In this document: positions 8,354 through 36,935 of the stretch, piece after piece
Position numbering within the stretch: the stretch's first letter is position 1
Layout of the letters: each line of letters opens with the position of its first letter
NCBI GenBank assembly: GCA_964558645.1
Contig: CAZLEV010000003.1
Coordinates: 64,001-128,000 of the forward strand
DNA from: an uncultured archaeon
GTDB taxonomy: Archaea; Asgardarchaeota; Thorarchaeia; Thorarchaeales; Thorarchaeaceae
Length of the DNA stretch: 64,000 bases
Direction of reading: 5' to 3'
Translations under genes and position numbers: made by a program
Notes under the pieces: model-generated
What the model saw: the letters and a program-made list of their open reading frames with translations, nothing else
Database searches by the model: none
What the model was told of the DNA's origin: nothing

Positions 8354-9574
8354 ATGGACAAGCCGATATTCGGGAGTAGAATATCTTTGAAATTCAATGA
8401 ATATCCAAGAGAATTTTTTCTTTTGGTCATCTCAACATTGGCAATCTTTCTTGCATACAACATCACTCTACCAATTCTGCCTCTTCATCTCTTGCTTCTA
8501 GGCGCAGGGTCTCTTGAGATTGGGGCTATCATGGGAACTCTATCATTTGTCCTTACCTTCACCAAGCTACCATCAGGAATCCTTGCACAAAGATCCACGA
8601 TGCAGAGGGCCCTTGCCTTTTCGGCAACTGGGCAAGCTATAACTCAGATTCTCTACTCCGTATGTACTGCTTCGAACTGCTTCATATTTGCTCAGATTTT
8701 TCATGCAATAACCTTAGCCCCGTTGGTGTCTGTGGGTATCGCATCTTCTCAGAAGATGGCGCCGGACGGTAGAAGGGGAGAAGCAATGGGTTTCTATTTG
8801 TGTGCCTACGGAATAGCGGCAACAGTCGGTCCAGTCATCTGTTCACTGTTGCTCCTTTGGATGAATTATGCACAGATATTCCTCATTTCCTCTGCTATAC
8901 CTTTACTGGGTGTTCTTCCATTTCTGTTCGTGAAGGGGTCTGTTCACTTGGGTATTGATGAAACAGGCTCTGAACGGAACGTGATTAAAGAGCTAGGCCT
9001 ACTAGTACGCTCTAGGAATGTGAATCTCGTTAGTTTTCTTCGTTTTCTCTATGCTACAACTTTCGGGTTTTTTGGTGCATTCTTCGTAATACACGCAGAG
9101 GTAAATCTTCTATTTCTTCCATCTGCGATAACGCTTATGCTTGCCGCGATGGGCGCAGCCGATTTAATTGCTCGGTTTCCTCTGGGGCGCATGCTTGACA
9201 GGATTGACTACAGGTGGGCCCTTGTGGGTTCGTATGCAATACTTGGGTTCCTCTACTATGTGCTATCAGAGATTCAAGCTCCCTTTGAGCTGACAGCTAT
9301 CCTCTTTCTGACTGGACTGGCAACAGGTGTAAGGGTCACCTCAGAATGGGTAATGCTGGCAGATAACTCTCCCGAGGGTGCCCGCTCGATGACGTCTGGC
9401 TATATGTCAACAATAGACAATATCGGCAGAGGGTTCGGTGCCACGCTCGGTGGATATATCGTGATGGCCTCCTCGATATCTCTAGGCTTCAAGCTAGCGG
9501 GAGCAATAATGTTTGTAGCCGCACTAGTATCTACGCAAGTAGGCGGTTCAGTCGATCCTGCCGTCCGTGAATAG
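8354..9574 (+). CDS. MFS transporter (paralog of 14320..15528)
   Basis: About 12 hydrophobic segments, GRMLDRIDYR loop; true start may be TTG near 8387. Confidence 0.88.
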   Translation: MDKPIFGSRISLKFNEYPREFFLLVISTLAIFLAYNITLPILPLHLLLLGAGSLEIGAIMGTLSFVLTFTKLPSGILAQRSTMQRALAFSATGQAITQILYSVCTASNCFIFAQIFHAITLAPLVSVGIASSQKMAPDGRRGEAMGFYLCAYGIAATVGPVICSLLLLWMNYAQIFLISSAIPLLGVLPFLFVKGSVHLGIDETGSERNVIKELGLLVRSRNVNLVSFLRFLYATTFGFFGAFFVIHAEVNLLFLPSAITLMLAAMGAADLIARFPLGRMLDRIDYRWALVGSYAILGFLYYVLSEIQAPFELTAILFLTGLATGVRVTSEWVMLADNSPEGARSMTSGYMSTIDNIGRGFGATLGGYIVMASSISLGFKLAGAIMFVAALVSTQVGGSVDPAVRE

Positions 9575-9669
9575 TCCGGCTGGTGACCCCAGTGATCTTT
9601 CCCGCTCGGTAGAGCGGAGGAATACTTGCTGCTGCTATTCAGCATCTGTTTGAAAACTGTTTACGAAGC

Positions 9670-9714
9670 AAAAAAAATTGGGGGATGTGAAGGTCTACCC
9701 ATCCTTCACATCCC
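9670..9714 (-). terminator. Hairpin plus U-tract terminator of the minus-strand operon 13967->9775
   Basis: Perfect 12-bp stem GGGATGTGAAGG/CCTTCACATCCC (9682-9714) followed on the minus strand by T8 (9670-9677). Confidence 0.7.
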
Positions 9715-9774
9715 GAGGAGGTCGTTTTCGACTCTTGGAGGTATAGGAGGTCTCAGAGTCAGAGTCCGTGGTTG

Positions 9775-10176
9775 TTAGGGGTATTTCCCCTTCTTCAAGA
9801 TTGTAACCATTCTGCCCGTACCTTTGATTACTCTTTGAGAATGAGGTATTTCCTTCGGAATGAATACCGTCACGGGAGCGGTCACAATGTATTTTTCGTC
9901 TTCGAGCGTAATTTCAGCCTGTAGAGGACTATCATTTCCCGGTTCATCGAGGAATATGAAGACCTGATCCACATCATGAGTATGCAGTTCCACATAGTCC
10001 GGCATGTCCTCGGGAACATTATCTATGTGGCGTGTTGTGACTCTGATTCCGGCGCCTTCATAGTGAATGTCATCAAGCAACACATAGGACTGCCCTGTCT
10101 TGTTCATGACAGAGCTATCATGATGTTTAATCTCCTCGCTAGGCCGAGGTTTTAGAATGGTATTCTCGTACTTCAT
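9775..10176 (-). CDS. Cupin-fold protein
   Basis: HTHDVDQVFIF and FIPKEIPHSQ cupin motifs. Confidence 0.75.
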   Translation of the reverse strand: MKYENTILKPRPSEEIKHHDSSVMNKTGQSYVLLDDIHYEGAGIRVTTRHIDNVPEDMPDYVELHTHDVDQVFIFLDEPGNDSPLQAEITLEDEKYIVTAPVTVFIPKEIPHSQRVIKGTGRMVTILKKGKYP

Positions 10177-10188
10177 GGGTGCACATCC

Positions 10189-11346
10189 TTACAGTTCTAG
10201 TCCACGATGGAGATTTGGTGTGAATATCTCATGGCCGTCTGAAGTAACATGAACAACATCCTCAACGTTGAATCCAGCAACTCCAGTCCAATAATACGGG
10301 ACTTCTATAGAGAGTACCATGTTCTCTTCGAGTTCGATGTGATTGTTGGGGTTGACCAGAGGCTCTTCCTCCGTGATGAGACCGAGACCGTGACCAAGAT
10401 GAGACCTCTCAAATTCAGGATAACCCATCTCTCGGACTGTTTCGATTCCGGTCTTGAAGAGGTCTGAGAACTTGACGCCTGGCTCTATCATATCGACAAT
10501 GCGCCTCTCTGCCTCAGCGAGAGCGCTGTATACTTTCACAATCTTCTCGGATGGTTCTCCCAGCACACGACAGCGAGCGAAATCACAGCGGTATCCATAG
10601 TATATAGCCCCACCGTCGAATCTCATGACATCACCTTTCTTTAACTTGTGGTCGAGAGGCCATCCGCGTCTAACCGTTGCAGACTCTTTGCCGATAGTTA
10701 GATTCTGATGAATTAGACCCTTGTGCATGAATCCTCCCTGTTTGGTGATTTCGAGCTGAAATGCCCCTAAGAAATCTGCTTCTGTCGCACCTTCCTTCGC
10801 AACTGCGAATGCAGCTTCGAATCCTTTCTCAGAGATTTCGCAGGCTCTCTTTATCCTGTCGACTTCTTCCTTGATTTTGACTGCTCTGATGTCTAGGAAG
10901 GTCTTGGAGGCATCGTGGAACTTCACGTCCGGAAGTTTGTCCACAATCTTTCTGAAGTCAACAATAGGCAAGGTCTTCTCCTCAATCCCGATAGTTGCCT
11001 TGGTGAGCCCTTTCTCTTTAAGAACATCTTCGAGTGCTACCACAGTGTTGTCGTAGACATCTATCTCATCCTCATTTTCCCTTTTGAAGTACGCCCAAGT
11101 CTTGGTGAATCTCTGGTCCTTGATGGGAGAAACGACTTTGGCGAGGTCTGCGTCCAAGGCAGTAACGCACAAGACTGGATCTCCATCAAGAGGAATCAGA
11201 ACGAACTGTCCAAAACCGCTCGAGAAACCCCTGAAGCGGTCTATGAACGGAATGTATAGATCTCCTGCGTAGAAGAAGTTCTCGGGAGAGGAAGCAAGGA
11301 GAGCATCCAGCTTCCGCTCCTTCATTATTTTCTTTGCTCTCTTCAT
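10189..11346 (-). CDS. M24 family Xaa-Pro peptidase/creatinase-like amidohydrolase
   Basis: Creatinase N-domain (LDALLASSPENFFY), DGG...GYRCDFAR, GHGLG, IEVP, VEDVV. Confidence 0.9.
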   Translation of the reverse strand: MKRAKKIMKERKLDALLASSPENFFYAGDLYIPFIDRFRGFSSGFGQFVLIPLDGDPVLCVTALDADLAKVVSPIKDQRFTKTWAYFKRENEDEIDVYDNTVVALEDVLKEKGLTKATIGIEEKTLPIVDFRKIVDKLPDVKFHDASKTFLDIRAVKIKEEVDRIKRACEISEKGFEAAFAVAKEGATEADFLGAFQLEITKQGGFMHKGLIHQNLTIGKESATVRRGWPLDHKLKKGDVMRFDGGAIYYGYRCDFARCRVLGEPSEKIVKVYSALAEAERRIVDMIEPGVKFSDLFKTGIETVREMGYPEFERSHLGHGLGLITEEEPLVNPNNHIELEENMVLSIEVPYYWTGVAGFNVEDVVHVTSDGHEIFTPNLHRGLEL

Positions 11347-11400
11347 GTTGATTGGCGTTTTCTACATCTCCTTTCATTTCATCATAATAACGAACAACAT

Positions 11401-12483
11401 CTAGACAACGTACTTATCGTTTGGATACTCATCCATGTACCTATCACGTCGATCGACAATGACCGTGACGACATTCTGGCCTTCGTCCAGATTCTCAGCA
11501 ACTTTCAGGGCTGCATGCACGTTTGCGCCAGAAGACATACCACAGTAGATACCCTCTTCCTTGCACAGCCTGTTGGCCATGTTCCTAGCATCGTCCTGAG
11601 TCACACCGAACCATTCATCTGGATACCCTCTCTTGTACATCTTCTCTACAATCGAGTCTTCTGTTACCCATTTCTCAAGTCCGAGCATCTCACATATCTT
11701 CATTCGGAGTGGTGGCCGTCCCATTGTTGTGCTATCCATGATGTCCGTACTGATATCTACCAGGCTGGTTCCTTCGTCAGGAACCACTCCAAAGGTATAC
11801 GGTTCAACACCATGATTCTTCAGTGCTGTTGCCACTCCCAAAAACGTGGCACCTGATCCCACCGATGCGCCCCATGCATCAATCTTACCCTCTAGTTGAG
11901 TGTGAATCTCTTCACCCATGGGGATCTGCCCTTCCCAGTTCGCATCATTGTAGATCTGGTCAACCCAGACGACATCAGGGTTGTCACGTTCCATCTCATA
12001 CATGTGGTACTTTCCGGCGATTATGACAGCGAACCTGCGTTCTTTGTCGGTTTCGAAGGCATCTAATACCTCATCGCACGGCAGTGGGCAGGGATAGTGA
12101 TTCGCACCGAAGGCAGAGCTGATTTTGAGTCTAGCGCTCATATTCTTGTCTCCGGAGTGTAGGAAATGAGCATAGGTGCAGAGTTTGATTTTGTAGCCCT
12201 TCATGGCACAGACAAAAGCCAGGGCTGGAGCTGTGTTTCCAGCGGATGCATCACAGACCGTCCCGCCCGGCTCGAGTTTCTTTCCGTTCCAGGTATCGCC
12301 CCTCTCTGCAGCTTCGATCATGGAGAGTGCCATTCTGTCCTTGTAGCTCCCACTGGGGTTGAGGTGTTCGAGTTTCACGAATACGTTTGCGGGAACATCC
12401 TTGCCGACTCTGTTTAGCTTAAGCAGAGGGGTATTCCCTATCACTTCTAGCATGCTTTCCTTATAGTCCATTTTTGTGGTCAC
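11401..12483 (-). CDS. Cysteine synthase/cystathionine beta-synthase family PLP enzyme (divergent)
   Basis: IGNTPL, KLEHLNPSGSYKDR (PLP Lys), GMSSGAN, DRRDRY; substrate loop is ASAGNTA rather than TSGNTG. Confidence 0.88.
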   Translation of the reverse strand: MTTKMDYKESMLEVIGNTPLLKLNRVGKDVPANVFVKLEHLNPSGSYKDRMALSMIEAAERGDTWNGKKLEPGGTVCDASAGNTAPALAFVCAMKGYKIKLCTYAHFLHSGDKNMSARLKISSAFGANHYPCPLPCDEVLDAFETDKERRFAVIIAGKYHMYEMERDNPDVVWVDQIYNDANWEGQIPMGEEIHTQLEGKIDAWGASVGSGATFLGVATALKNHGVEPYTFGVVPDEGTSLVDISTDIMDSTTMGRPPLRMKICEMLGLEKWVTEDSIVEKMYKRGYPDEWFGVTQDDARNMANRLCKEEGIYCGMSSGANVHAALKVAENLDEGQNVVTVIVDRRDRYMDEYPNDKYVV

Positions 12484-12503
12484 CTTCTCAGGTTATTGTT
12501 CAC

Positions 12504-13967
12504 CTACTTCTCTATCTCGCTAGCCCACTTCGCAATGGTTTCAAGCGTCTTCACGAGTCCCCTTACACAGAGCTCAACAACATCTGGAATCAGTTTACCT
12601 TCCGAATCTAGGTTGCCTTGGCCCATGACCAAGAACAGATTTCCGTCATAGCATAGTGGAGGTCGGATCCCTAGCTGCGGGGTTCCTTTCTGTATCAGAT
12701 TGCTGGCTGCGTACATGTCCTCTATACTGAATATTGGCATTCCCCACTTGTCTCCCTTCCAAGTGTCGGCGTAGTTGATTTCTACAGCCATTCCGTTTAC
12801 AGTAGGAGTTATCCTCCAGCCATTCTGCTGTATGAGATCAGATTCAGAGGTCGTGGCTTTGATGATCTTGTGCATGGTTGCAACATTTTCTCTCATCATG
12901 TCTTCTTTCGCGAGAAGGTTTTCAAGCGCAACGACAACTCCAGCCAGTGCCTCCTTCCCGGGGTCCGCCATAACATGTGCCGCTTTTCCATACGAGGATG
13001 CTGTGCCTTCACGTGCTCCATGAACTCCCATTGCCTTGCGTACAGGGACCATAACGTCTTCCTTTCCGAGAATAAGGCCGCACGTGGGACCTCCTGCTGC
13101 TTTGTCCATGCTGTACATCATTATGTCTGCGCCGTTCTGCCTGGGATCAATTCCTAAGAATGGAGTTCCTCTTGCGTTGTCGCAGATGTAGGGTACATCA
13201 TACTTGTTTGCGAGGCCACCGATGAGTTTCTGAAGCTTTGGTGTTCCATCCTTGTCCTTAATGTCGTATCCGTAACCAATCGTGTCATAGCCAAGTGACG
13301 TGAATGCTGCAAGCCTGTCAATATGCCTCTCCGCAACGGTCTGCATCCTTTCAGCTGACGCCTCAGGGTCAACTTCTGTGAGTATTGGTACAGGATGGTA
13401 CTTGATACCGTGAGCAGGGTAACGAGCTCCTTCGAGAGGGACAATAAGGGTATCGAGATTGGACAACCTCTTTCCCGAGAGTCCGAGCTCTCCTGATGTG
13501 ACTCCTCGGTCACTGAAGAGTTCTTTGTACTTGGGTGGAAACGGACGGCCATATCCTCCCTGATGATGCAAGTGTCTCTCGTAGGGCGCAATATATGCTG
13601 ACCTATAGGCGTCACCTCTGCCTAGAGTGGGTGGCGTTACAAGAGCCTCAAATGATACCCAAAGAGCCGCTTCGGCTGTACTCACTACAGTGGCATCATA
13701 GTCGTCCCCATATACATCCTTGACCATATCACGCACTCTATCGATATAGGTGACAAGCGAGATTACTTCCTTGCTGGCGTTATGCATCGCATCGAGAATA
13801 TTATCAGCGATGGTGGGTGGTGTTCCAGATCCCCCACCCATACCGATTCTACCATACTTATCCTTTGGAACCTTGACCTCGTCTGACTGTGCCTTTATAT
13901 CAGACATGATTTCCGACTTGTGTTTTTCAAGATACTGATACATCCTGAACTTATTATTATCTGACAT
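12504..13967 (-). CDS. Fold-type I PLP-dependent enzyme, SelA-like/uncharacterised
   Basis: PYICDNARG and MYSMDKAAGGPTCGLILGK resemble the SelA-like PLP lysine motif. Confidence 0.65.
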   Translation of the reverse strand: MSDNNKFRMYQYLEKHKSEIMSDIKAQSDEVKVPKDKYGRIGMGGGSGTPPTIADNILDAMHNASKEVISLVTYIDRVRDMVKDVYGDDYDATVVSTAEAALWVSFEALVTPPTLGRGDAYRSAYIAPYERHLHHQGGYGRPFPPKYKELFSDRGVTSGELGLSGKRLSNLDTLIVPLEGARYPAHGIKYHPVPILTEVDPEASAERMQTVAERHIDRLAAFTSLGYDTIGYGYDIKDKDGTPKLQKLIGGLANKYDVPYICDNARGTPFLGIDPRQNGADIMMYSMDKAAGGPTCGLILGKEDVMVPVRKAMGVHGAREGTASSYGKAAHVMADPGKEALAGVVVALENLLAKEDMMRENVATMHKIIKATTSESDLIQQNGWRITPTVNGMAVEINYADTWKGDKWGMPIFSIEDMYAASNLIQKGTPQLGIRPPLCYDGNLFLVMGQGNLDSEGKLIPDVVELCVRGLVKTLETIAKWASEIEK

Positions 13968-13995
13968 ATTTTGAAATACGATGCTTCTCCCTAAT

Positions 13996-14319: not shown

Positions 14320-15528
14320 ATGATGAGTGAGAAAGGCTATCCATCAGAGTTCTATGTCCTGATCGCTACCTCAGTAACAGTCTTCCTTGCTGTTGAAACA
14401 ACCCGTCCGATTCTCCCGTTGCACGTCACGGCGATTGGAGCATCTCCTGTTGAGCTGGGCCTCATCATAGGATTGCTCTCGTTTGGATTGATGATTGCGA
14501 AGATTCCACTGGGTGCGTTTTCGGAAGCAGTTCCTGCTAAGAATATATTGGGTATAGCGGCAGTGGGCCAGAGCGTAGTTCAATGGATGTATTCGATCGC
14601 ATCGACTACAGAGGCCTTCTACGCTATACAGATCATTCATGCCATCATCATCGCACCGGTGGTACCTGTTGCAGTGGCTGTATCTCAGAATCTTGCTCCT
14701 CGCGGCCGCGAGAGTGAAACCATGGGGGCATTCTTAACATCATACGGAATCGCTTCGATGGCCGGCAGTTTCCTTTGTTCATTTCTTCTCACCATAATGG
14801 ACTATGCTCAGATATTCCAAGTGGCAGCGATTGTCCCTCTATTAGGCCTAGTACTTTTGATCATCGCCCGAAACGGCGAGTACTTGAGGGAGCCAACAGG
14901 TGGAGAAGAGCGTCCGGGTCTTGCTTCTTCTATGACTAATATACTGAGGTCGAGAGATATGCTGTTGCTCTCTTATCTCCGTCTAGCCTACGCGATCACC
15001 TATGCATTCTTCATTACCTTCTTCATCATCTACGCAGAGAACTCTCTCCTGATTCCAGCTGCTCTCGTAGCGTTGCTCTTTGGTGTGAGGAGTGCAACAG
15101 ATATGGCGGTGAGACTTCCGGTTGGGAAGATGTTGAACAAGACAGACTACAAGTGGTGTATTGTTGTAGCGTTTCTGTCACTCTCCGCAATATACTACCT
15201 TATCTCTGAGATGACGGATTACATAGTGTTGGCAGTGTTGATGGCCGTGTTTGGTATAATGATCGGCCTCCGCGTTGTTTCCGAATACACCATGCTTGCT
15301 GAGCATTCGGAGCCGGGGGCTAGGAGTGTGTCAGCAGCCTACTTATCTACAATGTTCAATATTGGTTCAGGGTTTGGATCTGTAGCTGCAGGAATTCTAG
15401 CAACCATTCTTGGTATTCCATCCATCTTCAAGATAGCAGCAGTATTGATGGTCACAGCCGCGATTGCAGCTCTTGCAATCACTAGTGATGCTAAGCAAGC
15501 AGATGTTCTCCACCCAGGATCGAACTAA
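14320..15528 (+). CDS. MFS transporter (paralog of 8354..9574)
   Basis: 12-TM pattern; shares YPxEFxxL and GxRVxSExxMLAxxSxxGARS with the 8354 MFS. Confidence 0.88.
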   Translation: MMSEKGYPSEFYVLIATSVTVFLAVETTRPILPLHVTAIGASPVELGLIIGLLSFGLMIAKIPLGAFSEAVPAKNILGIAAVGQSVVQWMYSIASTTEAFYAIQIIHAIIIAPVVPVAVAVSQNLAPRGRESETMGAFLTSYGIASMAGSFLCSFLLTIMDYAQIFQVAAIVPLLGLVLLIIARNGEYLREPTGGEERPGLASSMTNILRSRDMLLLSYLRLAYAITYAFFITFFIIYAENSLLIPAALVALLFGVRSATDMAVRLPVGKMLNKTDYKWCIVVAFLSLSAIYYLISEMTDYIVLAVLMAVFGIMIGLRVVSEYTMLAEHSEPGARSVSAAYLSTMFNIGSGFGSVAAGILATILGIPSIFKIAAVLMVTAAIAALAITSDAKQADVLHPGSN

Positions 15529-15596
15529 GAGTCGCCATGCCGCTTAATTCGAAAACAACAAATAACTAACAGTCGCCCGTTTCTGTCGGGATATTA

Positions 15597-17027
15597 ATGA
15601 CATTATTGGAAGAAATTCATGCGTATATCGATAGTCACAGCGATGTTCATCTTGAGGGCTTGCAGGATTTTGTCAAGCATCCAAGTATTTCAGTTGAGGG
15701 TCGCGGTACACGCGAGTGTGCCCGGTTTATCAATCAGTGGATGGTTGAAATCGGGTTTCAGATGGTTGAGCTCTACACCCCCGAAGGGAATCCAACTATA
15801 TACGGTGAATATTCCTCCTCGGCTAATCCGGATAAGACACTCTTGCTATATGGCGCATACGATAGCAATCCTGTGGAAGAGGAAAAATGGCATTCTCCTC
15901 CATTCAGCGGCGAAATCGTTGAGAAGCCGGGGTTGGGTAAGTGTTTGGTCGCCAGAGGTGTCAATAACAAGATGAAAGTGACAGGCATCCTAAATGCGAT
16001 TTCTAGTATTCAAAGTGTTTCCGAGGATCTTCCTGTAAACATCATTGTCGTTATCGATGGTGAAGAAGAGATGTTCAGTCCGAATCTTCCATCTTTTGTT
16101 TCAGAATACGCCGAGCATCTGAAGGCTGCAGATGCTCTTTACATGCCCTTCTCTTCTCAGAATTCTAAGGGCGTAGCTAGGGTTCAACTTGGCTATAAGG
16201 GAGTTTCATATCTTGAGTTGAGCTGTTCACACGAAACGTGGCATAGAGGCCCGAGTGATGAGATTCATAGTATGCACAGAGCCGCGGTTGACAATCCTGT
16301 GTGGTATCTGATCCACGCACTGGCATCCATGACAACCAAGAACGGCAACGAAGTTGTAGTCAATGGATTCGGTGATGCTATTGCTCCTCCTGAGCCGGGT
16401 TTTGTGAAGCTTGTAGAGAGTCTAGCTGAAGACTTCGATGTCAGCTCCTACAAAGAAGGGCTGGGAGTAGATCATCTCATGGATGATGAAGAAGAGCCGT
16501 TGGATGTGCTCAAGAAACTCTTCTTCACGTCACAAATCAACATAGACGGGATTTGGGGCGGCTACATTGGAGAAGGCGCAGAGGCGGTTGTTCCGCCAGA
16601 AGCAAGGGCCAAGCTTGACATCCGACTTATTCCTGAACAGAAACCTGTTAGGGTCCGCAGGCTAATCGAGAATCACCTTACATTACACGGCTTCAATGGA
16701 ATCACTATTGATGAATTGGCGGCAGTTGAGACTTGTCGAACCTCAGTAGATGATGAAATCGCAAGGTCTCTGATTCAGGCCTACGATAGCATCGGGGTTC
16801 ATGCTCAGGTATGGCCCAGCTCATTGGCCACGATTCCCATCTATGTCTTCAACCAGCCCCCGTTGAGCCTGCCGTTTGCCACTGGCTGTGTCGGCTTCGG
16901 TGGTCACACTCACGGAAGCAATGAGTATTTCGTTGTTGAAGGGAACGGCGACATTCAGGGGTTGGCGGGTTACGAGAAACTCATTGCGTCTGTTATCTGC
17001 CATTTTGGGCAATGTAATAGGACATAG
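15597..17027 (+). CDS. M20/M25/M40 family metallo-hydrolase with altered metal ligands
   Basis: PSIS, W.SPPF, GEEE, GYKG, HGSNEY; YGAYD replaces YGHYD and ARGVNNK replaces RGxxDDK. Confidence 0.85.
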   Translation: MTLLEEIHAYIDSHSDVHLEGLQDFVKHPSISVEGRGTRECARFINQWMVEIGFQMVELYTPEGNPTIYGEYSSSANPDKTLLLYGAYDSNPVEEEKWHSPPFSGEIVEKPGLGKCLVARGVNNKMKVTGILNAISSIQSVSEDLPVNIIVVIDGEEEMFSPNLPSFVSEYAEHLKAADALYMPFSSQNSKGVARVQLGYKGVSYLELSCSHETWHRGPSDEIHSMHRAAVDNPVWYLIHALASMTTKNGNEVVVNGFGDAIAPPEPGFVKLVESLAEDFDVSSYKEGLGVDHLMDDEEEPLDVLKKLFFTSQINIDGIWGGYIGEGAEAVVPPEARAKLDIRLIPEQKPVRVRRLIENHLTLHGFNGITIDELAAVETCRTSVDDEIARSLIQAYDSIGVHAQVWPSSLATIPIYVFNQPPLSLPFATGCVGFGGHTHGSNEYFVVEGNGDIQGLAGYEKLIASVICHFGQCNRT

Positions 17028-17222
17028 AATGGAGTCTTCGTTCTGCCGAGGATTAGTGTGTGACGCGATGCAGCAGATATCTCTCCGCCTAACACCTTAG
17101 TCGAGGGTGGAGTTGTGGCCATCGAGTATTCGTGCCAATATTCCTTGTAAGGATGACTCCTCTAATCGAAAAAGAAAACACGTTTATATATTGCGTCGAT
17201 ATTCATCCAATGGCTGATTAAA

Positions 17223-19141: not shown

Positions 19142-19462
19142 ATGGCTAAAGAATATAAAACTCCTTATGAAACGCACGAAATTGTCGCAGAAGTTGTATC
19201 AGTGCACGGACTGGGCGGCGAAGATACAGGCGGAAAAGGTCCTTGTAGATACTACAAACCGGGTGACAAAATACTGTTCAAAGAGGCCGAGATAGAAGGC
19301 GTGATTTGCTATAGCGCACTGGTCACAATGATGCACAAGATTCATCCCATGCGAGTTGGCTTCCAATATCCTTGGGCAAAAGATGGTATTATTGTACATG
19401 CCTGCCCAGATGCAGCTAGGCCAGTGGTGTTTCATATTCGAAGAGCTGAGAAGAAAGAATAG
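19142..19462 (+). CDS. TIGR04076-like small Cys-containing protein
   Basis: GPCRYYKPGDKI, ICYSAL, ACPD...PVVFHIRR pattern. Confidence 0.7.
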   Translation: MAKEYKTPYETHEIVAEVVSVHGLGGEDTGGKGPCRYYKPGDKILFKEAEIEGVICYSALVTMMHKIHPMRVGFQYPWAKDGIIVHACPDAARPVVFHIRRAEKKE

Positions 19463-20836: not shown

Positions 20837-20843
20837 CGAGAGA

Positions 20844-24832: not shown

Positions 24833-24845
24833 TCGACCTTGACTC

Positions 24846-28720: not shown

Positions 28721-29848
28721 CTATAGGCGATATTTGGCATATTTGCCTTTACACGGGTTTCCGTCTGAGATCCAGAACTCCTTTCGACTCGGCAATGAGA
28801 TCATATTGGATAATGTGTGATGTGTTTCTCCGTGTCGGCAAATGGAGTTGTTTCCTTCAGGTGGTTGGTCACCGTACTTATGATCTGACATAATAGTCTG
28901 AACTCCATTAAGGTCTATGTGGCCATACTTTTCCCATCCGAGTTCTACTAACCTTTCATATCTTTTGAAAGTCGACATATAGTCTTCGACGCTTCTGGGC
29001 CCGAAATTCCTCATCTCCGGATTGTGATAGTGGTTTGTTGAAACAACGAAGTGGTTCCTCGTCTGTATAGTCATTATTCTCTTGGTTGAGAATGATATTC
29101 TTGCCATGTTTCCTTCACTGTCCACGACATCGACATTCTCTCCTGCGTGTGAGTAGTATGGTATTCTTCTCACCAGTTGAACGAATTCATCAACGCTACT
29201 ACATCTCTCGAGCCCAATTCTCGTTATTATCAGAGGCGGAAAACCGAAATCAGCATCTCTGAATTGAACAATGCCAGAACCCACGAATGCTAATCCCTTT
29301 TCATTAAATCCAATTACGGAGTTTCGACCAAGATTACCGGCTAGTCCTCTTCCAATGAAACGATATCGACCTTCGGGACTAATATGAAAGACTTGAGCTA
29401 GGCCTTTTCCATGCATCGTAAGGGGCCAATCCGAGTTCTGTGTTGCAATAGGCATTTCGTCAGCTGTTGCATCTCCAGCTGCCACAAAGGAAGAGCAATC
29501 GGAATCACCTGTCGCGGTAGGCGTTGAATCGACAGATGCACCTTTGGTGTGGCTCACAGTATCTCTGACCTCCCAGAAGAACAGAAGCATCAGTGCAGTC
29601 TCATAATCCAATTCGGCTCCTTCAGCAAGCCCTCTGGCCTCGTCAATGACTTCTGGAAACTCTGATCCGATGAGATCTTCATATCTCTTGGTTATTTTTC
29701 TGATGCCTTCATTTGAGAGGGCAAGTTCCTTCATTTCTGTTTCCACAAAGGGAATCACGTTGTTCGAAATGATACTTTGCAGTTGAGTTCCATGCTGCAC
29801 GCCTATTTCGTAATGGCTACCTGTAAATCGGTGCATTTTCTGTGTCAT
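28721..29848 (-). CDS. C45 family Ntn hydrolase (close paralog of 22585..23670)
   Basis: DCSSF nucleophile, QNSDW; shares GRGLAGNLGR, SHAGENVD and STNHYHN with the 22585 gene. Confidence 0.9.
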   Translation of the reverse strand: MTQKMHRFTGSHYEIGVQHGTQLQSIISNNVIPFVETEMKELALSNEGIRKITKRYEDLIGSEFPEVIDEARGLAEGAELDYETALMLLFFWEVRDTVSHTKGASVDSTPTATGDSDCSSFVAAGDATADEMPIATQNSDWPLTMHGKGLAQVFHISPEGRYRFIGRGLAGNLGRNSVIGFNEKGLAFVGSGIVQFRDADFGFPPLIITRIGLERCSSVDEFVQLVRRIPYYSHAGENVDVVDSEGNMARISFSTKRIMTIQTRNHFVVSTNHYHNPEMRNFGPRSVEDYMSTFKRYERLVELGWEKYGHIDLNGVQTIMSDHKYGDQPPEGNNSICRHGETHHTLSNMISLPSRKEFWISDGNPCKGKYAKYRL

Positions 29849-30254: not shown

Positions 30255-31283
30255 TCAACTCTCTTCAATCCAGTTGCCGACCCCATGGCAAGCAACCCTC
30301 CTTCCTCCGAACTCCCTAAGCTGTGGTTCATCTGTCCTGCAGATGTCCTTAGAATATATACATCGTGTACTAAATCTACATCCAGGTGGTAAATCGACTG
30401 CGCTAGGCATCTCATCTTCAGATGGGAGCGATTGGAGGTGATGCTTGGTTCTAGGGTCGAGCGTAGCCAGTGCTGACTTGAGGAGCATGGTATATGGGTG
30501 ATACGGTTCTTCCAAGACATCCTTGCTTGGTCCTTCTTCTGCTATCCGTCCGAGATACATAATGCCAATCGTCTTGCACATGTACTGGGCGCTAGCCAAA
30601 TCGTGCGTTATGAGCAACATGGTGAGATCATGCTCATCCTTCAGTTGTCGAAGGAGGTTGAGTATTCCAGCTCTGACTGATAAATCCAACATGGAAACAG
30701 GCTCATCTGCCACTATGAATTTGGGGTTCAGCGCAAGTGCCCTTGCAATACTGAGTCTCTGCCGTTGCCCGCCACTAATCTGATTGGGATGTTTGCTGAG
30801 GAAGACTTCCGGAGGCACTAATCCAACATCTTCAAGGAGCTTGTAGACTCTTTCGTCCTTTTCTTCTTTGCACTCGCATATCTTATGGATTCGAAACGGC
30901 TCAGTGAGTATCTCGTCGGCCGTCAGCCTGACGGGCAGACTTGAGAATGGATCCTGATAGATAATCTGCATCTCGCGACGAAATGGTTTCATCTTCTTTC
31001 TTCCAAGATGGGAGATGTCATGACCCATGAATTGTAGAGATCCGTCGGTGGGTTCTAATAGCCGAATCAGAAGCTTTCCGAGTGTAGTCTTTCCACAGCC
31101 ACTCTCTCCTACTATGCCATACGTGGTCCCATCTTCAATCACGATGTCAACTCCATCGACGGCCTTGACATATGCGTTTGGGGCTCTGGATATGATTGCG
31201 CCGAGTCCCTTGCTTAGAGGGAACCATTTCTTCAAGTTCTGAGTCTGGATTATAGCTCGTTTGGCTTCATCTCTGCCTGACAT
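30255..31283 (-). CDS. Oligopeptide/dipeptide ABC ATP-binding protein (OppF/DppF)
   Basis: GESGCGKTT, ISGGQRQR, DEPVSMLD, C-terminal GCRFSTRC...VACH; ATG at 31283 (ORF track 31364). Confidence 0.93.
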   Translation of the reverse strand: MSGRDEAKRAIIQTQNLKKWFPLSKGLGAIISRAPNAYVKAVDGVDIVIEDGTTYGIVGESGCGKTTLGKLLIRLLEPTDGSLQFMGHDISHLGRKKMKPFRREMQIIYQDPFSSLPVRLTADEILTEPFRIHKICECKEEKDERVYKLLEDVGLVPPEVFLSKHPNQISGGQRQRLSIARALALNPKFIVADEPVSMLDLSVRAGILNLLRQLKDEHDLTMLLITHDLASAQYMCKTIGIMYLGRIAEEGPSKDVLEEPYHPYTMLLKSALATLDPRTKHHLQSLPSEDEMPSAVDLPPGCRFSTRCIYSKDICRTDEPQLREFGGRRVACHGVGNWIEES

Positions 31284-31287
31284 TGAA

Positions 31288-32256
31288 TCATACCTCTCTC
31301 CAGTTATGGCATTCAATATAGGATCTCTTGCGTCCTTCGATAGGCTCTCCGATTGGCTTGACATTTCTGCATATCTCAGTCATATACGGACATCTGGGAT
31401 GGAAGGGACATCCGCTTGGTGGACTCAGCAAATTCGGGGGAGTGCCTGGTATTACAGTCAGTTCCTTATCCAGCTGGTCTATAGTGGGAAACGATCCGAG
31501 GAGTCCCATTGTATATGGGTGCTTGGGCTCTAGAATCAAATCCTCTGCATATCCCGTTTCCATGATTCTGCCCGCGTACATAATCGCAATGCGTTCACAC
31601 ACCTCTGACAGGACAGCAAGGTCATGAGTGATCCACATCACTGAAAGACCCAGTTTCACCTTCAGATCGTGAATCATCTTCAGAATCGAATGCTGAACGA
31701 CAACATCCAAAGCCGTAGTAGGCTCGTCCAAGAACAAGACCTTTGGATCTGATATCAATGACATCGCAATGAGGACTCTTTGTTTCATTCCGCCTGAGAA
31801 CTCGTGAGGGTAGTTACTTATTCTAGATGGGTCAATCCCCACCATTTCTAGAAGTTTTCTTGCCTTGTCGAGTGCATCCCCTTTATTGAAATCGTCGTAT
31901 CTGGTTAGAGGTTCAATCATCTGGTCGGAAATCCTGAACATGGGATTGAGGGCATGCATCGATTGCTGCAAAACCAGTGCAAGGTCATTCCATCTGTATT
32001 CCACGAATTCTCTCTTATCGAGGGGCATCAGGTCAACACCCTTGTAGATCACCGACCCCTCGATTACCTTATGCGGAGGATGGATTAGCCGCAGAATGGA
32101 CATCGCTAGAGTTGTCTTGCCACATCCTGACTCGCCTGCAATCCCAAGTGTTTCGTTCTCACTGAGACCAAGACTGCATCCATCGACGGCTTTCACGGGA
32201 CCCGATGCAGTGATGTAGCGTGTCTTCATGTCCTTAACTGTCAGTATCTCGCTCAT
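31288..32256 (-). CDS. Oligopeptide/dipeptide ABC ATP-binding protein (OppD/DppD)
   Basis: GESGCGKTT, FSGGMKQR, DEPTTALD, GCPFHPRC. Confidence 0.94.
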   Translation of the reverse strand: MSEILTVKDMKTRYITASGPVKAVDGCSLGLSENETLGIAGESGCGKTTLAMSILRLIHPPHKVIEGSVIYKGVDLMPLDKREFVEYRWNDLALVLQQSMHALNPMFRISDQMIEPLTRYDDFNKGDALDKARKLLEMVGIDPSRISNYPHEFSGGMKQRVLIAMSLISDPKVLFLDEPTTALDVVVQHSILKMIHDLKVKLGLSVMWITHDLAVLSEVCERIAIMYAGRIMETGYAEDLILEPKHPYTMGLLGSFPTIDQLDKELTVIPGTPPNLLSPPSGCPFHPRCPYMTEICRNVKPIGEPIEGRKRSYIECHNWREV

Positions 32257-32259
32257 TCT

Positions 32260-33177
32260 CTATATCTCCTCCAGCGAAGTTCCAAGAATCTTGTTCAATG
32301 AGTCTCCGAGCAGACTAAAGCCTAGAACTGTCATGAATATGAAGGCCGAGGGAATCATGGTTGTCCACCAGACACCCGATAATATGGTCTGGCGGGCCGC
32401 TGCTAGATCAGAACCCCACTCTGGTGTTGGCGGAGGTACTCCTAGGCCAAGGAAACCAAGACCCGATATGCTTAGTATAGCTGTAGCAACGCTTATTGTG
32501 AACACAACAACAAGAACTGAGAAGGTCAACGGGAGTACATGACGAAAGACGATGTATAAATCGCTAGCACCGAGAGATACTTCCGCTTCTATAAACTCCT
32601 CTTCAGAGATAGAAACAGCTGCACTCCTTGTCGTTCTGTAGAATCTGGGAACGAGGCCGATAGCAACTGCAATAGAAGTATACAATGGCCCTCCGCCTAA
32701 GGCCACGGACACAAGCAAGGCCGTGAGAAAGGCCGGAAACGCATAAAGACCATCCATAGGTAAAGTCAGAAGTCGGTCGAGCCATCCGCCGTAGTAGCCG
32801 GCAAGGACTCCTAATAGTACTCCAATGCTCGAGGCTATGAGCACGGAAATCAATCCAACAAGCAGTGATACTCTTGCCCCGAAGATAATCCTACTCCATA
32901 CGTCCCTGCCGAGTGTGTCAGTGCCGAAGATATTTGGAAAACCGGGAGGTTGGAGAACGTTTTCAGGATATATCGTCGTCGGGCTATAGGGCGCTATGAA
33001 GTCCGCGACAAGCCCAAGGAGAACAACAAACAGCACGAGACCCAGACCAAGAAAGAACGAAGCTTGGTCTACCCTCTGAAGCGACCACAGCTTGCTTTCC
33101 CTAATTCTGTTACTTGCCTTTGAGAAGTATTCTTTTAGTACTTCTAACGGCGGTCTACTGCTTTCACTTATCTGCAT
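32260..33177 (-). CDS. Oligopeptide/dipeptide ABC permease (OppC/DppC)
   Basis: FGTDTLGRD, EAA-like loop, LGFLGLG.PPPTPEWG. Confidence 0.93.
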   Translation of the reverse strand: MQISESSRPPLEVLKEYFSKASNRIRESKLWSLQRVDQASFFLGLGLVLFVVLLGLVADFIAPYSPTTIYPENVLQPPGFPNIFGTDTLGRDVWSRIIFGARVSLLVGLISVLIASSIGVLLGVLAGYYGGWLDRLLTLPMDGLYAFPAFLTALLVSVALGGGPLYTSIAVAIGLVPRFYRTTRSAAVSISEEEFIEAEVSLGASDLYIVFRHVLPLTFSVLVVVFTISVATAILSISGLGFLGLGVPPPTPEWGSDLAAARQTILSGVWWTTMIPSAFIFMTVLGFSLLGDSLNKILGTSLEEI

Positions 33178-33216
33178 GGTCTTTCTATACCTCTCTCAGT
33201 CTATTAGCTGTTTAGA

Positions 33217-34224
33217 TTAGAATCTCATTCTTGGATCCAGATAGTAGTATGATATATCGATAAGAAGCCCGATGACTGCATTAGTTAGAACAAATAGGGT
33301 CACCACTCCTTGAGTAAGTATGTAGTCTCTTAACGATGCGGCGGTCAGCAATAGTGAGCCTAGACCATTCAGAACGAATACGGATTCAATCAGAACCGAG
33401 CCGGTTAGAAGCGCCCCTGCTTGCATGGCCGTAATCGTAACCACAGGTAGAAGCGCATTTCTGAACGCATGTTTGTTCACGATTGTCTTTTCAGACATGC
33501 CTTTTGCTTCTGCAAGAAGGCAATAACTCCGTTTCATCGCTTTCAGAGTTTCAGACCGTGTTAGCCTTATTGTAACTGCAGCATACCCGGATGCGAGTAC
33601 GAGGGAAGGCAGAAGGAAATGTGAGAACGCATCAACAAAGGCCACAAAATCTCCGGCGAGCAATGAATCGAGGAGTATCATTCCAGTAATAGGTGGTGGC
33701 CTGATTCCTGGGCTTCGAGTGCCAAAGATGGGCAAAACCTGCAGGTAAACTCCGAATATAAGCTGGCACATAACCCCAAGAACGAAGACCGGGATCGCGT
33801 ATAAAGACAGAGTTGCCAGTCTAGTCACATGATCCTCCATCTTACCTGCATTGCGAGCACTCCTCCTTCCGACTGCTATTCCGATTACGACGGAGAAAAT
33901 CCACGCAAGAATTGCCAGTTGTATAGTGACTCCTGCACGCTGCCATATCAGAAATGAAACGTCCTCCCTGAGAATGAAAGATCTTCCGAAGTTTCCAGTA
34001 AAGGCACTTAGCATATAATCAAAGTATTGCATGTGCAGAGGTTGGTCGAGTCCTAGATCAGCTCGAACTTTCTCAATCACTTCTGGAGGTGCATCCTCGC
34101 CAACCATGTTAAGAACTGGATCACCGGGGATGATGTGAATCACAACGAAGATGAAGGTCATCATGAAGAACACGACAAGCGCCATCGTTACTAATCGGTT
34201 TAGAATGTACTTCTTGAAACCCAT
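33217..34224 (-). CDS. Oligopeptide/dipeptide ABC permease (OppB/DppB)
   Basis: PGDP, LGLDQP, AKG...HAFRNALLP, IESVF, LDPR. Confidence 0.93.
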   Translation of the reverse strand: MGFKKYILNRLVTMALVVFFMMTFIFVVIHIIPGDPVLNMVGEDAPPEVIEKVRADLGLDQPLHMQYFDYMLSAFTGNFGRSFILREDVSFLIWQRAGVTIQLAILAWIFSVVIGIAVGRRSARNAGKMEDHVTRLATLSLYAIPVFVLGVMCQLIFGVYLQVLPIFGTRSPGIRPPPITGMILLDSLLAGDFVAFVDAFSHFLLPSLVLASGYAAVTIRLTRSETLKAMKRSYCLLAEAKGMSEKTIVNKHAFRNALLPVVTITAMQAGALLTGSVLIESVFVLNGLGSLLLTAASLRDYILTQGVVTLFVLTNAVIGLLIDISYYYLDPRMRF

Positions 34225-34658: not shown

Positions 34659-34733
34659 ATATTCCCTGAATATTTTGTCGCCAAGAGTTAAATATTGGAA
34701 TATTATGAAAATATTGTATTGTTGTAGATATTC
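34659..34733 (+). promoter_or_regulatory. Cluster of AATATT/ATATTC boxes upstream of the aspartate dehydrogenase-like gene
   Basis: AATATTC-CCT-GAATATT (34658-34674), AATATT at 34691, 34699 and 34710, ATATTC at 34728. Confidence 0.55.
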
Positions 34734-34765
34734 AAAAGCGAACACAGATGATTCCTGGTGATACT

Positions 34766-35551
34766 ATGGATAAGAAAATCGGTCTAATTGGATTTGGACG
34801 AATCGGATTATACGTTTATGAGATGACTGAAAACGATGAGAGTGTATCTCTCGATTTTGCGCTTGACGCAGACCCGGAAAAGACCAAAGCGCTCGATGAG
34901 AGAAAGGTGCTTAGCAGTGCGGAGCAGATTGGAAGTCGGGTTGTTGATCTTGTTGTGGAAGCAGCAAACTCAGATGTTGTCAGAGAACTAGCTCCCAAGA
35001 TTTTGAAATCGAATGATTTGATGGTTTTATCAGTCACGGCTCTTGCTGATGCAGAGTTCTACGACGAGCTCAGGGATGTCTGTGCGAAGAATGGAACACG
35101 TTTGTTCATTCCACACGGCGCATTGTTGGGAATGGATGGACTTTTTGATGCGAAGCACACACTTGACGAAGTCACGATAACGACTACAAAGAACCCCCGA
35201 AACATAGATTTCAGCTACACAGACAAATATAGCGCGGCAGACATCAAGGAGCCTACCGTATTGTACGATGGACCCGCCAGAGGAATATGCAGTATGTTTC
35301 CTAGGAATGTGAACTCACATGCAATTGTGGCCCTAGCAGGGATTGGTTTTGACAAGACTCGTGCAGTTCTGATAGCTGATCCCACGTCAGATGATGCAGT
35401 ACAGCATATTGTCGCAAGAGGTGAGGGAACAGTCCTTGAGATAAAGAGGTCTTCAGCCATCAAGGGAGTGACGGGAGAGTATACCCTTGCCTCCATCTAC
35501 GGTTCCATTCGAAGAGCTGTTCTGAGCCCCCATGGAGTGAATATAGTGTGA
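34766..35551 (+). CDS. L-aspartate dehydrogenase family protein (NadX-like, DUF108)
   Basis: IGFGRIG Rossmann motif, VVEAA, PHGALLGMD, YDGPAR...FPRNVN. Confidence 0.85.
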   Translation: MDKKIGLIGFGRIGLYVYEMTENDESVSLDFALDADPEKTKALDERKVLSSAEQIGSRVVDLVVEAANSDVVRELAPKILKSNDLMVLSVTALADAEFYDELRDVCAKNGTRLFIPHGALLGMDGLFDAKHTLDEVTITTTKNPRNIDFSYTDKYSAADIKEPTVLYDGPARGICSMFPRNVNSHAIVALAGIGFDKTRAVLIADPTSDDAVQHIVARGEGTVLEIKRSSAIKGVTGEYTLASIYGSIRRAVLSPHGVNIV

Positions 35552-35597
35552 AACACACCTGTGATGCTTCTCAGGAACGAATGGAGAGTAGAAAGGA

Positions 35598-36935
35598 ATG
35601 ACAACATTAGATGAGAGAATTGCGAGTTTCGTGGATGAGCTATCTTACAGGTCTCTTCCTAAAGATGTAGTGGAACATGCCAAGACCTTGATTCTGCATC
35701 ACCTATATACGGGCTATGCAGGAATAAGTGAGGAAGAAACGCAGATTGCTGCATCGATTGCATTAGATGACATTAGGGGCGAGGGAGAGTCCACCGTACT
35801 TGGTAGGAAGCGTAAGACCTCCGCGCCACTGGCGGCATTTGTTAACGCAACATTCATGCATGGAGTTCAGCAAGAAGACACCTATCGCGGCCTTCATCCC
35901 GGCCCTCATACTATCCCGGCGGCAATTGCGATTGGTGAGGAGCGTAAGGGCGACGGCGTCACCTTCCTTGAGTCGATAGTCGCAGGGTATGAGGTCAATC
36001 TTCATCTGGGGGAGTCATTTGCCAAGTATACGAGCCCCAACGGGTGGAGAGGGACAACCATCTATGGTGTTCTCGGGGTTGCCGCAACATCTGCCAAGAT
36101 GCTGGGCCTAGATAGTCCACAGATTGCTGACGCTCTGTCGCATTCCACGAATATGGCCGGCGGTTTGATGCAGTGTTGGCTGGAAGGGACTCCTGAATGG
36201 CTATATGCTAGCGGTCTTGCTGCTCAGAATGGTCTCGTGAGCGCGCTGCTTGCTGAGCGCGGAGCGGTCGGAGCTCGTTCATCCTTTGCCGGTCCAAAGG
36301 GATTCCTGAAGGCCTTCTGCGGTATAGTTCCTGACGACGCTGAGGAGCTACCGGACAAGATGGAGCGGGAGTTCCTAACACCCAAGGTCATTCTCAAACC
36401 TTATTCAGTTATTACTTCAATTCTCCCCGTTATTCACAACGTAGTTATGCTTCGTGAGAGAGAAGGTATCATTTGGGATGAGATAAAGTCGATTGAGATT
36501 GTAGCTGAGCCGCGGGTCACTCACGGCCCTCTTGCAGCCTCGATTCTCGATTCTGGACCGTACACAAACAAAACACAGGCCTACAAATCATTGCCGTGTG
36601 CAACAGGCATTGCGTTGCGTTTCGGCACAGTGCTCCCGCATACTGTTTCCAAGTTCGAGAACAAGGATGTGAGTAGTCTGGCGGCATTGGTTGATGTTAA
36701 GATGGAGGAATCCTATGAGAGTTTCTATAGCTCCGTAGAAATACTCACGCAAGATGGTTCGAAGTACTCTATCGAAGGCGAGGCCTTTCCGAGTCTTAGT
36801 CCAGAGGAGGTTCGGGAGAATCTGCTGCTTGCAGCTTCTGAATACGTTGGAGAAGAGAAGACTCGCAAGATGATCGGCGTCATTGAGAATCTTGAGAGAG
36901 AGTCTGTTGAATCTCTCTCGAAGTGTCTTTCCTGA
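35598..36935 (+). CDS. MmgE/PrpD family protein (second, divergent)
   Basis: AAFVNA...QEDT...HPG, GYEV, GWRGT, GPKGF, LKPYS. Confidence 0.88.
   Translation: MTTLDERIASFVDELSYRSLPKDVVEHAKTLILHHLYTGYAGISEEETQIAASIALDDIRGEGESTVLGRKRKTSAPLAAFVNATFMHGVQQEDTYRGLHPGPHTIPAAIAIGEERKGDGVTFLESIVAGYEVNLHLGESFAKYTSPNGWRGTTIYGVLGVAATSAKMLGLDSPQIADALSHSTNMAGGLMQCWLEGTPEWLYASGLAAQNGLVSALLAERGAVGARSSFAGPKGFLKAFCGIVPDDAEELPDKMEREFLTPKVILKPYSVITSILPVIHNVVMLREREGIIWDEIKSIEIVAEPRVTHGPLAASILDSGPYTNKTQAYKSLPCATGIALRFGTVLPHTVSKFENKDVSSLAALVDVKMEESYESFYSSVEILTQDGSKYSIEGEAFPSLSPEEVRENLLLAASEYVGEEKTRKMIGVIENLERESVESLSKCLS

Follow-up and report, generated by a model that had tools for sequence, protein, structure and literature searches.

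A conserved accessory gene island of Thorarchaeota with a putative role in the uptake and breakdown of amide-linked amino-acid derivatives

What would an uncultured Asgard archaeon do with a long run of hydrolases, pyridoxal phosphate (PLP) enzymes and importers set side by side? The question is raised by a block of 24 genes located at positions 8354-36935 of the window that we have analyzed here, a stretch of 64,000 nucleotides from GenBank assembly GCA_964558645.1 (contig CAZLEV010000003.1, positions 64,001 to 128,000). The host is a Thorarchaeota (Asgard) metagenome-assembled genome (MAG) of 3.63 Mb in 37 contigs, 93% complete and with a stated contamination of 6.3%. Positions are those of the window unless another sequence is named. 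We have found that the block is a genuine accessory island, which the genomes of Thorarchaeota have as a whole or not at all. As to its role, we consider it probable, although only just, that the island is dedicated to the uptake and catabolism of one or several small non-proteinogenic amide-linked amino-acid derivatives.

The comparison was carried out by tblastn, with all the island proteins against stretches of other genomes. A core of 11 genes (g02-g12), coding for a cupin, an M24 hydrolase, a cysteine-synthase-like (CysK-like) enzyme, a SelA-like enzyme, the major facilitator superfamily (MFS) permease b, an M20-family protein, an AstE-type deacylase, the orphan g09, a TIGR04076 protein, a first MmgE/PrpD enzyme (PrpD1) and an M19 homologue, was found at 52-97% identity and in shuffled order in at least eight other Asgard genomes. 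Two of them belong to the same genus (G001 and G002), four to further genera of the family (G013, G003, G016 and G375) and two to a second Asgard family (G105 and G106, loci L025 and L026). We have also surveyed the 86 genomes of the family of the host with the SelA-like, cupin and g09 (at least 61% identity) proteins as markers. Orthologs of the SelA-like and cupin genes were detected in the same eight genomes and g09 in seven of those eight (one contig is cut), while none of the three was found in the remaining 78. These 86 genomes are kin, so the pattern is descriptive and no statistical test is attached to it. Part of the rest of the island accompanies the core in most of the copies. The DppBCDF importer genes, the binding-protein gene, at least one C45 gene and DUF6917 adjoin it wherever the contig is long enough, and DppBCDF orthologs 62-97% identical lie beside the island in G001, G013, G003, G375 and L025/L026. 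G001 and G013 retain the class III aminotransferase as well as the pair formed by the aspartate-dehydrogenase-like (AspDH-like) gene and the second PrpD gene (PrpD2), and the G003 stretch ends with a 44% fragment of the aminotransferase. Thus the co-occurrence that the original prediction had put forward as its check is borne out for the SelA-like, CysK-like, C45 and PrpD genes and, in three genomes, for the AspDH-like gene as well. G013 (L012, G013:C22:226001-246000) has two copies of the C45a-C45b-DUF6917 triplet, one at 1400-4086 and the other at 15061-17842 of the locus.

The place of the SelA-like gene differs from copy to copy. It lies within the CysK operon here and in G001 and G013, heads the CysK string in G016 and G375, heads the string that runs from AstE to M19 in L025/L026, with a 19-nt overlap with the AstE gene, and in G003 is joined to this same string by a 4-nt overlap. 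The gene moves between two operons and both stay linked, which argues for one function. In the tree of the SelA-like proteins the ten island copies form a single clade (support 100) beside bacterial sequences (support 81). The copies of the second Asgard family are nested among those of Thorarchaeota, and this fits a transfer of the island between Asgard lineages. The tree does not put the Asgard clade within the bacteria, so that we propose neither a donor nor a direction for any exchange with them.

Every open reading frame (ORF) of the 24 genes was found where the original prediction had placed it, and Pfam and NCBIfam profile searches of the ORFs of the block and its flanks upheld the family labels, strongly for most of them and less so for the SelA-like and cupin genes. 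The genes are spread over both strands and form five transcription units or more. MFS permease a (g01, 8354-9574, plus strand; MFS_1 E 1e-35) stands alone, is ~38% identical to g06 and has orthologs in the same genus only. The second unit (minus strand, g05-g02, gaps of 20, 54 and 12 nt) codes for an orphan fold I PLP enzyme distantly similar to SelA/DgaE (g05, 12504-13967), the CysK-like fold II PLP enzyme (g04, 11401-12483; PALP E 3e-58), the M24 hydrolase with its creatinase/prolidase N-domain (g03, 10189-11346; Peptidase_M24 E 2.5e-40) and the small cupin (g02, 9775-10176). The third (plus strand, g06-g12) contains MFS permease b (g06, 14320-15528; MFS_1 E 1e-35), which all the copies of the island have at 45-92% identity, the M20-family protein (g07, 15597-17027; M20 E 1.7e-7, dimerisation domain M20_dimer E 1.8e-11), the AstE/AspA-type zinc deacylase (g08, 17223-18206; AstE_AspA_cat E 1e-22, of the clan of M14), a 289-aa orphan with a Cys-rich C-terminus (g09, 18225-19094), the small Cys-containing TIGR04076 protein (g10, 19142-19462; E 2.6e-13, 50 bits for a cut-off of 33), PrpD1 (g11, 19481-20836) and the M19 (renal dipeptidase) homologue (g12, 20844-21905; Peptidase_M19 E 6.8e-83, profile positions 11-318 of 319). 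In the 679 bp (21906-22584) that separate M19 from C45a, two genes which converge, no family-assignable ORF, Rfam match or clear terminator was found. The fourth unit (minus strand, g22-g13) starts with the DppB, DppC, DppD and DppF-type genes of an ATP-binding cassette (ABC) importer (g22-g19, 30255-34224; two ABC_tran plus oligo_HPY, two BPD_transp_1). It continues with the C45 N-terminal nucleophile (Ntn) hydrolase c (g18, 28721-29848, ~55% identical to g13), a family 5 solute-binding protein with an N-terminal hydrophobic membrane anchor (g17, 26967-28586; SBP_bac_5 E 9e-74), the class III aminotransferase (g16, 25561-26859; Aminotran_3 E 1e-97, below every equivalog cut-off), the DUF6917 beta-barrel protein (g15, 24846-25349; DUF6917 E 2e-30), C45b (g14, 23750-24892), whose start overlaps g15 by 47 nt, and C45a (g13, 22585-23670; AAT E 2e-19). 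A terminator-like hairpin is located 3' of the binding-protein gene. The fifth unit (plus strand) is formed by the AspDH-like NAD(P) enzyme (g23, 34748-35551; Asp_DH_C E 2e-19) and PrpD2 (g24, 35598-36935; PrpD N-domain E 2e-54 and a weak C-domain, ~25% identical to g11).

The unit may actually start at 5829, because two flanking genes adjoin the island in G001, G002 and G013 too. One (5829-7076, minus strand) codes for a class V PLP enzyme, SufS/EgtE-like (Aminotran_5 E 1e-36; SufS 108 bits for a cut-off of 475), and the other (7114-8157, plus strand) for a 347-aa protein that has no Pfam or NCBIfam match and whose orthologs in these genomes are 61-92% identical. The Rfam search detected two tRNAs only, both outside the island, and a shared operator, sought as 11- and 12-mers in ten intergenic regions, was not found. 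Scans for sigma-70 promoters and terminators gave background levels, and are not applicable to archaeal promoters.

Catabolism is the role suggested by such a mixture, in which importers and many amide hydrolases are found together with PLP enzymes of the beta-active type and enzymes of the dicarboxylate type. A biosynthetic reading was set aside, as the set is dominated by hydrolases and importers and has no ligase, synthetase, nonribosomal peptide synthetase or ATP-grasp gene. Four steps can be envisaged. Uptake of the substrate would fall to the core MFS permease and to the Dpp-type ABC system, whose binding protein is anchored in the membrane. Once in the cytoplasm, the substrate would have its amide bonds cleaved by M24, by the zinc deacylase of AstE/DoeB-like type and by the C45 Ntn hydrolases. 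The CysK-like and SelA/DgaE-like beta-active PLP enzymes would remove the amino group or the beta-substituent of the amino acid released, possibly helped in some genomes by the class III aminotransferase and the AspDH-like dehydrogenase. Finally, the PrpD-family enzymes may convert the di- or tricarboxylate skeleton that is left. The M19, M20, cupin, g09, TIGR04076 and DUF6917 proteins are members of the unit that stay outside these four steps.

As for the substrate, the binding protein g17 is by sequence nearest to 5u4o, GsiB, HbpA and DppA. Its scores against the curated models are 148.4 bits for NikA (cut-off 393), 133 for GsiB, 113 for DppA and 102.7 for CntA (cut-off 800), that is, about alike and far below cut-off for the four. 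It carries an A-D-Y..D segment that aligns with the GDNGD of DppA, which we take to be the segment that binds the amino terminus of the peptide. This motif and the gene set favour a small amide-linked amino-acid derivative with a free amino group.

The two candidate PLP enzymes of the third step score below the cut-offs of the named families. The SelA-like label of g05 holds as far as an E of 1e-11 to the DgaE/selA_rel model (TIGR01437) goes, but the profile match covers only ~120 residues around the PLP lysine, the Pfam SelA match has an E of 0.006, and the scores are 44.4 bits for selA_rel (cut-off 385) and 21.4 for selA (cut-off 268). The S-M-D-K motif of the PLP lysine is invariant. CysK-like g04 scores best with cysKM (180.6 bits, with cut-offs of 344-394 for cysKM, cysK and cysM), has the PLP-lysine motif S-Y-K-D-R and is the most conserved gene of the island, with 75-97% identity among the Asgard copies. 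Homologs 57-68% identical to it were found in Nitrososphaeria, Anaerolineales, Victivallales and Bathyarchaeia.

The PrpD-family and AspDH-like enzymes also stay below the curated cut-offs. PrpD1 has cis-aconitate decarboxylase (E 2e-33) and iminodisuccinate (IDS) epimerase (E 4e-28) as nearest structures, and for prpD equivalog cut-offs of 458-950 bits g11 reaches 41 and g24 22 bits. The AspDH-like protein stays below all the NCBIfam aspartate dehydrogenase cut-offs (146.5 for 177 and 141 for 267 bits). It is the sole Asp_DH_C gene of the genome and the genes for NAD synthesis are elsewhere (nadA ~35 kb off on the same contig, nadC on C6, nadB on C9 and C11), so the original prediction was right in not taking it for a housekeeping NadX. 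The two nadB matches (C9:120381-121892 and C11:12365-13876) have the same score (547.7 bits) and the same length on different contigs, and are probably a duplicated contig stretch in the MAG.

Several considerations weigh against dedicated catabolism of an amide-linked derivative. Each activity is a guess at the level of the family, because no enzyme reaches a curated equivalog cut-off. Co-regulation would be a presumption, given the number of transcription units, their location on both strands and the lack of a shared operator among the regions searched. The part formed by Dpp, C45 and DUF6917 could serve a different substrate from that of the MFS-linked core, MFS proteins can be exporters, and RidA was not found in the island. 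Besides, two of the hydrolase homologues are probably unable, judging by their residues, to act as binuclear metallopeptidases.

This last point came from inspecting the active sites. The original prediction had counted seven amide hydrolases, and five of them, the M24, the AstE and the three C45 proteins, look intact. In M24, with prolidases and aminopeptidase P as nearest solved structures and DoeA at E 1e-9, D243, D255, H319, E348 and E362 are conserved and are taken as the five metal ligands by motif, not by structural alignment. AstE conserves the HxxE, the H and the catalytic E motifs. The C45 proteins g13, g14 and g18 score 188, 232 and 183 bits, above the C45_proenzyme cut-off of 85, and keep the nucleophile Cys, in a C-S-S-F motif in g13, in G-C-T-T in g14 and also conserved in g18. 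The M20 and M19 proteins, on the other hand, lack the canonical metal ligands. In M20, whose nearest structure is Sso-CP2 (E 6.5e-50), GAYD stands at the place of HxD and GVNNK at that of the bridging Asp, with the canonical positions placed by the usual motifs of the family and not by structural alignment, and both are kept in six orthologs. In M19 the comparison with Sco3058 (3id7) gave E to Q at the bridging Glu, H to Q and H to N; the first Q and the N are kept in six of six orthologs, of which four have Q and two have H at the middle position. This loss of ligands is common to a small subclade only. As the changes of both proteins are kept in six orthologs of 55-65% identity, they are selected features and not decay. 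On the metagenomic contig L122 (668-2017) two M19 homologues from the ligand-poor subclade lie in tandem, and the second is 65% identical to g12 over its first 85 residues.

These data bear on the alternative that survives best, although we consider it unlikely, namely that the locus is a loose neighbourhood for the scavenging of peptides, in which a dipeptide importer with peptidases, a deaminating operon and a dicarboxylate module have no common substrate. Such a set would be ordinary for a sediment archaeon living on detrital protein. The nearest relatives of the M24, M20 and M19 proteins are prolidase and aminopeptidase P, the dipeptidases Sso-CP2 and CNDP2, and renal dipeptidase, and those of the binding protein include GsiB, HbpA and DppA. 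The several transcription units with no shared operator, and the fact that the modules occur apart in bacteria, are also what this explanation expects. It does not account, however, for the all-or-none distribution of the core markers in the 86 family genomes, for a linkage that survives rearrangement in at least five genera and an island that is found in a second Asgard family, or for the SelA-like gene that switches operons. The conserved degenerate metal sites of M19 and M20 do not fit bulk peptide hydrolysis, and two PrpD enzymes, a cupin, g09, TIGR04076 and DUF6917 have no role in standard peptide use.

Pieces of the island also appear outside the Asgard archaea. A scan with the SelA-like protein, with one genome per species, gave 80 loci, 8 archaeal and 72 bacterial. 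All eight archaeal loci carry the core, whereas in the 72 bacterial ones, with homologs ~52% identical to g05, only DUF6917 travels with the SelA-like gene. In most of these DUF6917 is directly upstream and co-directional, often with RidA too, and 28 of 52 pairs are within 74 bp. The bacterial cluster contains DUF6917, RidA, a GidA-like flavoprotein, a B12-binding protein of 606 aa and a KamB-like reactivase. As RidA adjoins the bacterial SelA-like genes, the SelA-like enzyme is suggested to be an eliminating lyase that forms an enamine or imine. In these loci (L029-L100) the B12-binding domain of the 606-aa protein is N-terminal and a 359-aa protein just reaches the cut-off of the KamB reactivase model (210.8 for 210), while no recognisable KamD/KamE mutase was found in the conserved set. 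The likeness to the island lies in the SelA-like (~52% identity) and DUF6917 (30-46%) proteins. By contrast, tblastn of the island copy of G375 (L166/L167) with the bacterial representatives detected DUF6917 and none of the RidA, flavoprotein, B12 and KamB genes, and all 24 genes of the island studied here belong to families other than these. Here the SelA-like and DUF6917 genes are 11 kb apart and DUF6917 precedes a C45 gene. The AlphaFold2 (AF2) model of DUF6917 has a predicted local distance difference test value (pLDDT) of 89, but its fold search gave no match above Z 4.3 and names no function; a complex prediction with the SelA-like protein scored 0.00 and was used neither way. A SelA-like paralog (41%) of other Asgard genomes, with neither island nor B12-cluster neighbours, was rejected as a candidate.

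Other partial sets recur. At a Pseudothermotoga locus the SelA-like, DUF6917 and RidA genes have genes for an Asp/Glu racemase, a DAO-type oxidase and a DAPDH_C protein in their company. In two genomes a CysK-like homolog is accompanied by M24 and an ABC importer for amino acids of the LIV type, and in one of the two by PrpD as well. A member of the ligand-poor M19 subclade is found with a family 5 binding protein, two M24, AstE, PrpD and other amidohydrolases. Homologs of g09 (~52% identity) are located in hydantoin-type clusters with a hydantoin-racemase-like gene, DUF917, NicX, an NCS1 permease and hydantoinase A/B. The whole gene set was found in none of the bacterial loci examined, so that the island joins modules that are separate in bacteria, and the combination of M24, AstE, M19 and PrpD (with or without CysK-like) is not unique to Asgard archaea.

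From here a bolder proposal can be made, to which we give a small chance. The island would code for a multi-step pathway not described before, in which the ligand-less M19 and M20 proteins have been re-purposed (for example with a metal borne by the substrate) and a new PLP lyase made of the SelA-like and DUF6917 pair cleaves C-N or C-S bonds, the same pair working in most of the 72 bacterial loci. If this were true, the substrate would define a new catabolic route common to Asgard archaea and anaerobic bacteria.

Rather less can be said for the salvage of thiol peptides or cysteine S-conjugates, by import, trimming and C-S cleavage with beta-eliminating PLP enzymes as in the mercapturate/beta-lyase route, which we regard as quite unlikely. 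It would make sense of the good score of the binding protein with GsiB, of the union of M19 and M20, two families of Cys-Gly dipeptidases with DUG1, CNDP2, renal dipeptidase and GliJ among the solved relatives, and of the CysK-like, SelA-like and flanking SufS/EgtE-like enzymes, all from families with sulfur amino-acid chemistry. But it is precisely the M19 and M20 homologues that lack the metal ligands, the binding protein resembles GsiB no more than it does NikA or DppA and scores far below cut-off, the island has no gamma-glutamyl transferase or ChaC-type gene, and PrpD, AstE and M24 are left with no role.

The neighbourhood of the island introduces iron. A DtxR-type repressor and a split FeoB (37004-40261, minus strand; Fe_dep_repress, FeoB_N, Gate, FeoB_C) lie 69 bp beyond it, outside the unit. 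The GTPase gene (39449-40261) and the membrane gene (38124-39452) of FeoB overlap by 4 nt beside the repressor, an arrangement that G001 keeps at 95-96% identity. The original prediction had seen in this an island abutting a Feo operon, and the neighbour is real. Nevertheless, the adjacency is shared only by G001 (L009), of the same genus, and the island surroundings retrieved from G013 and G003 did not show it. Since it is limited to the genus, it gives little support for a link to metals.

This has to be weighed together with the idea, advanced at the outset, of a metallophore or aminopolycarboxylate, that is, of a chelating carboxylate-rich amide imported by a Nik/Cnt-like ABC system and dismantled to free the metal, which now appears improbable. 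The top NCBIfam matches of the binding protein and of one importer permease are nickel types (NikA 148, Opp2B 252 and CntA 103 bits), PrpD1 resembles IDS epimerase, and hydrolase homologues with no ligands could, speculatively, use a metal borne by the substrate. The chelator part of the idea loses ground because, apart from the limited Feo adjacency, the nickel and opine models stay far below cut-off with GsiB and DppA scoring alike, and the binding protein, no closer to NikA or CntA, keeps its peptide-type motif. Genes for a siderophore-type reductase, a TonB-like protein or an opine dehydrogenase are absent. The aminopolycarboxylate part depends on the similarity of PrpD to IDS epimerase only, which is weaker than that to cis-aconitate decarboxylase.

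The scavenging of cell-wall peptides or D-amino acids, with Dpp/Mpp-like import, cleavage tolerant of L-D or gamma bonds and deamination by the SelA-like lyase, would find some echo in DgaE (the nearest named relative of the SelA-like protein, known for acting on a D-configured amino acid), in the gene company of the Pseudothermotoga locus and in M19 enzymes such as Sco3058 that prefer L-Xaa-D-Xaa dipeptides, but with no amidase, muramidase, LD-carboxypeptidase or racemase in the island and an M19 homologue devoid of ligands it would be the least probable of all.

Returning to the uptake and catabolism of an amide-linked amino-acid derivative, no described pathway fits it, as the original prediction had held: no curated equivalog cut-off is reached, and no publication on the gene cluster came up in text searches for DUF6917, for TIGR04076 or for the family names combined. 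The nearest described logic is the breakdown of ectoine and hydroxyectoine, where the M24 hydrolase DoeA opens the ring, the AstE-type deacetylase DoeB and the class III transaminase DoeD act next in this order, and EutB is a fold II PLP dehydratase. The island holds the same four enzyme families in one locus, DoeB is the sole NCBIfam match of g08, with solved DoeB among its best structures, and g03 aligns to DoeA over the full length. However, g03 scores 71.7 bits for a DoeA (TIGR02993) cut-off of 613, with prolidase-type models scoring higher, and g08 101.2 bits for a DoeB (TIGR02994) cut-off of 402.7. The fold II enzyme is CysK-like and not EutB-like, DoeC and EutC are absent, and at least seven extra core genes have no counterpart. 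As read from the sequences, this is a resemblance and not membership.

Other systems are further away. Like the Dpp, Gsi and Nik importers with their dipeptidases, the island has a family 5 ABC importer of five components that is located beside homologues of M19, M20 and M24, but no equivalog cut-off is reached, the M19 and M20 sites are degenerate and there are PrpD, PLP lyases and Ntn hydrolases in addition. With both its PrpD domains, g11 is similar to IDS epimerase and cis-aconitate decarboxylase at the level of the family only, and a C-N lyase of the fumarase family is absent from the island. The yxe operon of Bacillus subtilis, for S-(2-succino)cysteine, has an M20 protein (YxeP), a PrpD-family protein (YxeQ) and an ABC importer. 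The island also unites M20, a PrpD-family protein and an importer for what would be a modified amino acid; it has no counterpart of the monooxygenase YxeK or the acetyltransferase YxeL, and its M20 has no ligands.

The cupin label is weak by profile (Cupin_2, E 0.097), but the HxH...H motif, with the HTH(D/E) and PH motifs, is conserved in the orthologs. TIGR04076 g10 conserves three Cys motifs; within one Bacillota class, 32 of the 73 genomes have homologs of it, but these are 25-31% identical, have no island-like neighbours and were discarded as a lead. For g09, which belongs to no Pfam or NCBIfam family, the AF2 model (pLDDT 84) has a weakly RpiA/eIF2B/DeoR_C-like fold (Z about 8) that names no function. 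The g09 family has a widely retained second member in Thorarchaeota, a paralog of 257-260 aa and ~33% identity that is present in 62 of the 86 family genomes. In G000:C4:77806-78516 (L168:7800-8582) it sits between a gene of the fumarase/adenylosuccinate-lyase family, which may be purB, and an ABC-2 exporter pair.

What is new here is the all-or-none pattern over the family, the switching of the SelA-like gene between operons, the loss of metal ligands in M19 and M20 together with the subclade that shares it, and the two partial counterparts in bacteria. That two peptidase homologues have lost metal ligands, and that this loss is conserved, poses a concrete puzzle for enzymology. The island ties together three orphan sets of bacterial genes, SelA-like with DUF6917, CysK-like with M24 and PrpD, and ligand-poor M19 with AstE, M24 and PrpD. 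Linked as they are, the identification of one substrate could annotate many genes. The finding has no bearing on eukaryogenesis or on any long-standing open question. Hardly any Asgard archaeon has been cultured, and what these organisms feed on is deduced from their genomes. For them, an accessory trait of 25-30 kb, carried by roughly a tenth of the Thorarchaeota genomes, may be the sign of a particular food source in sediments.

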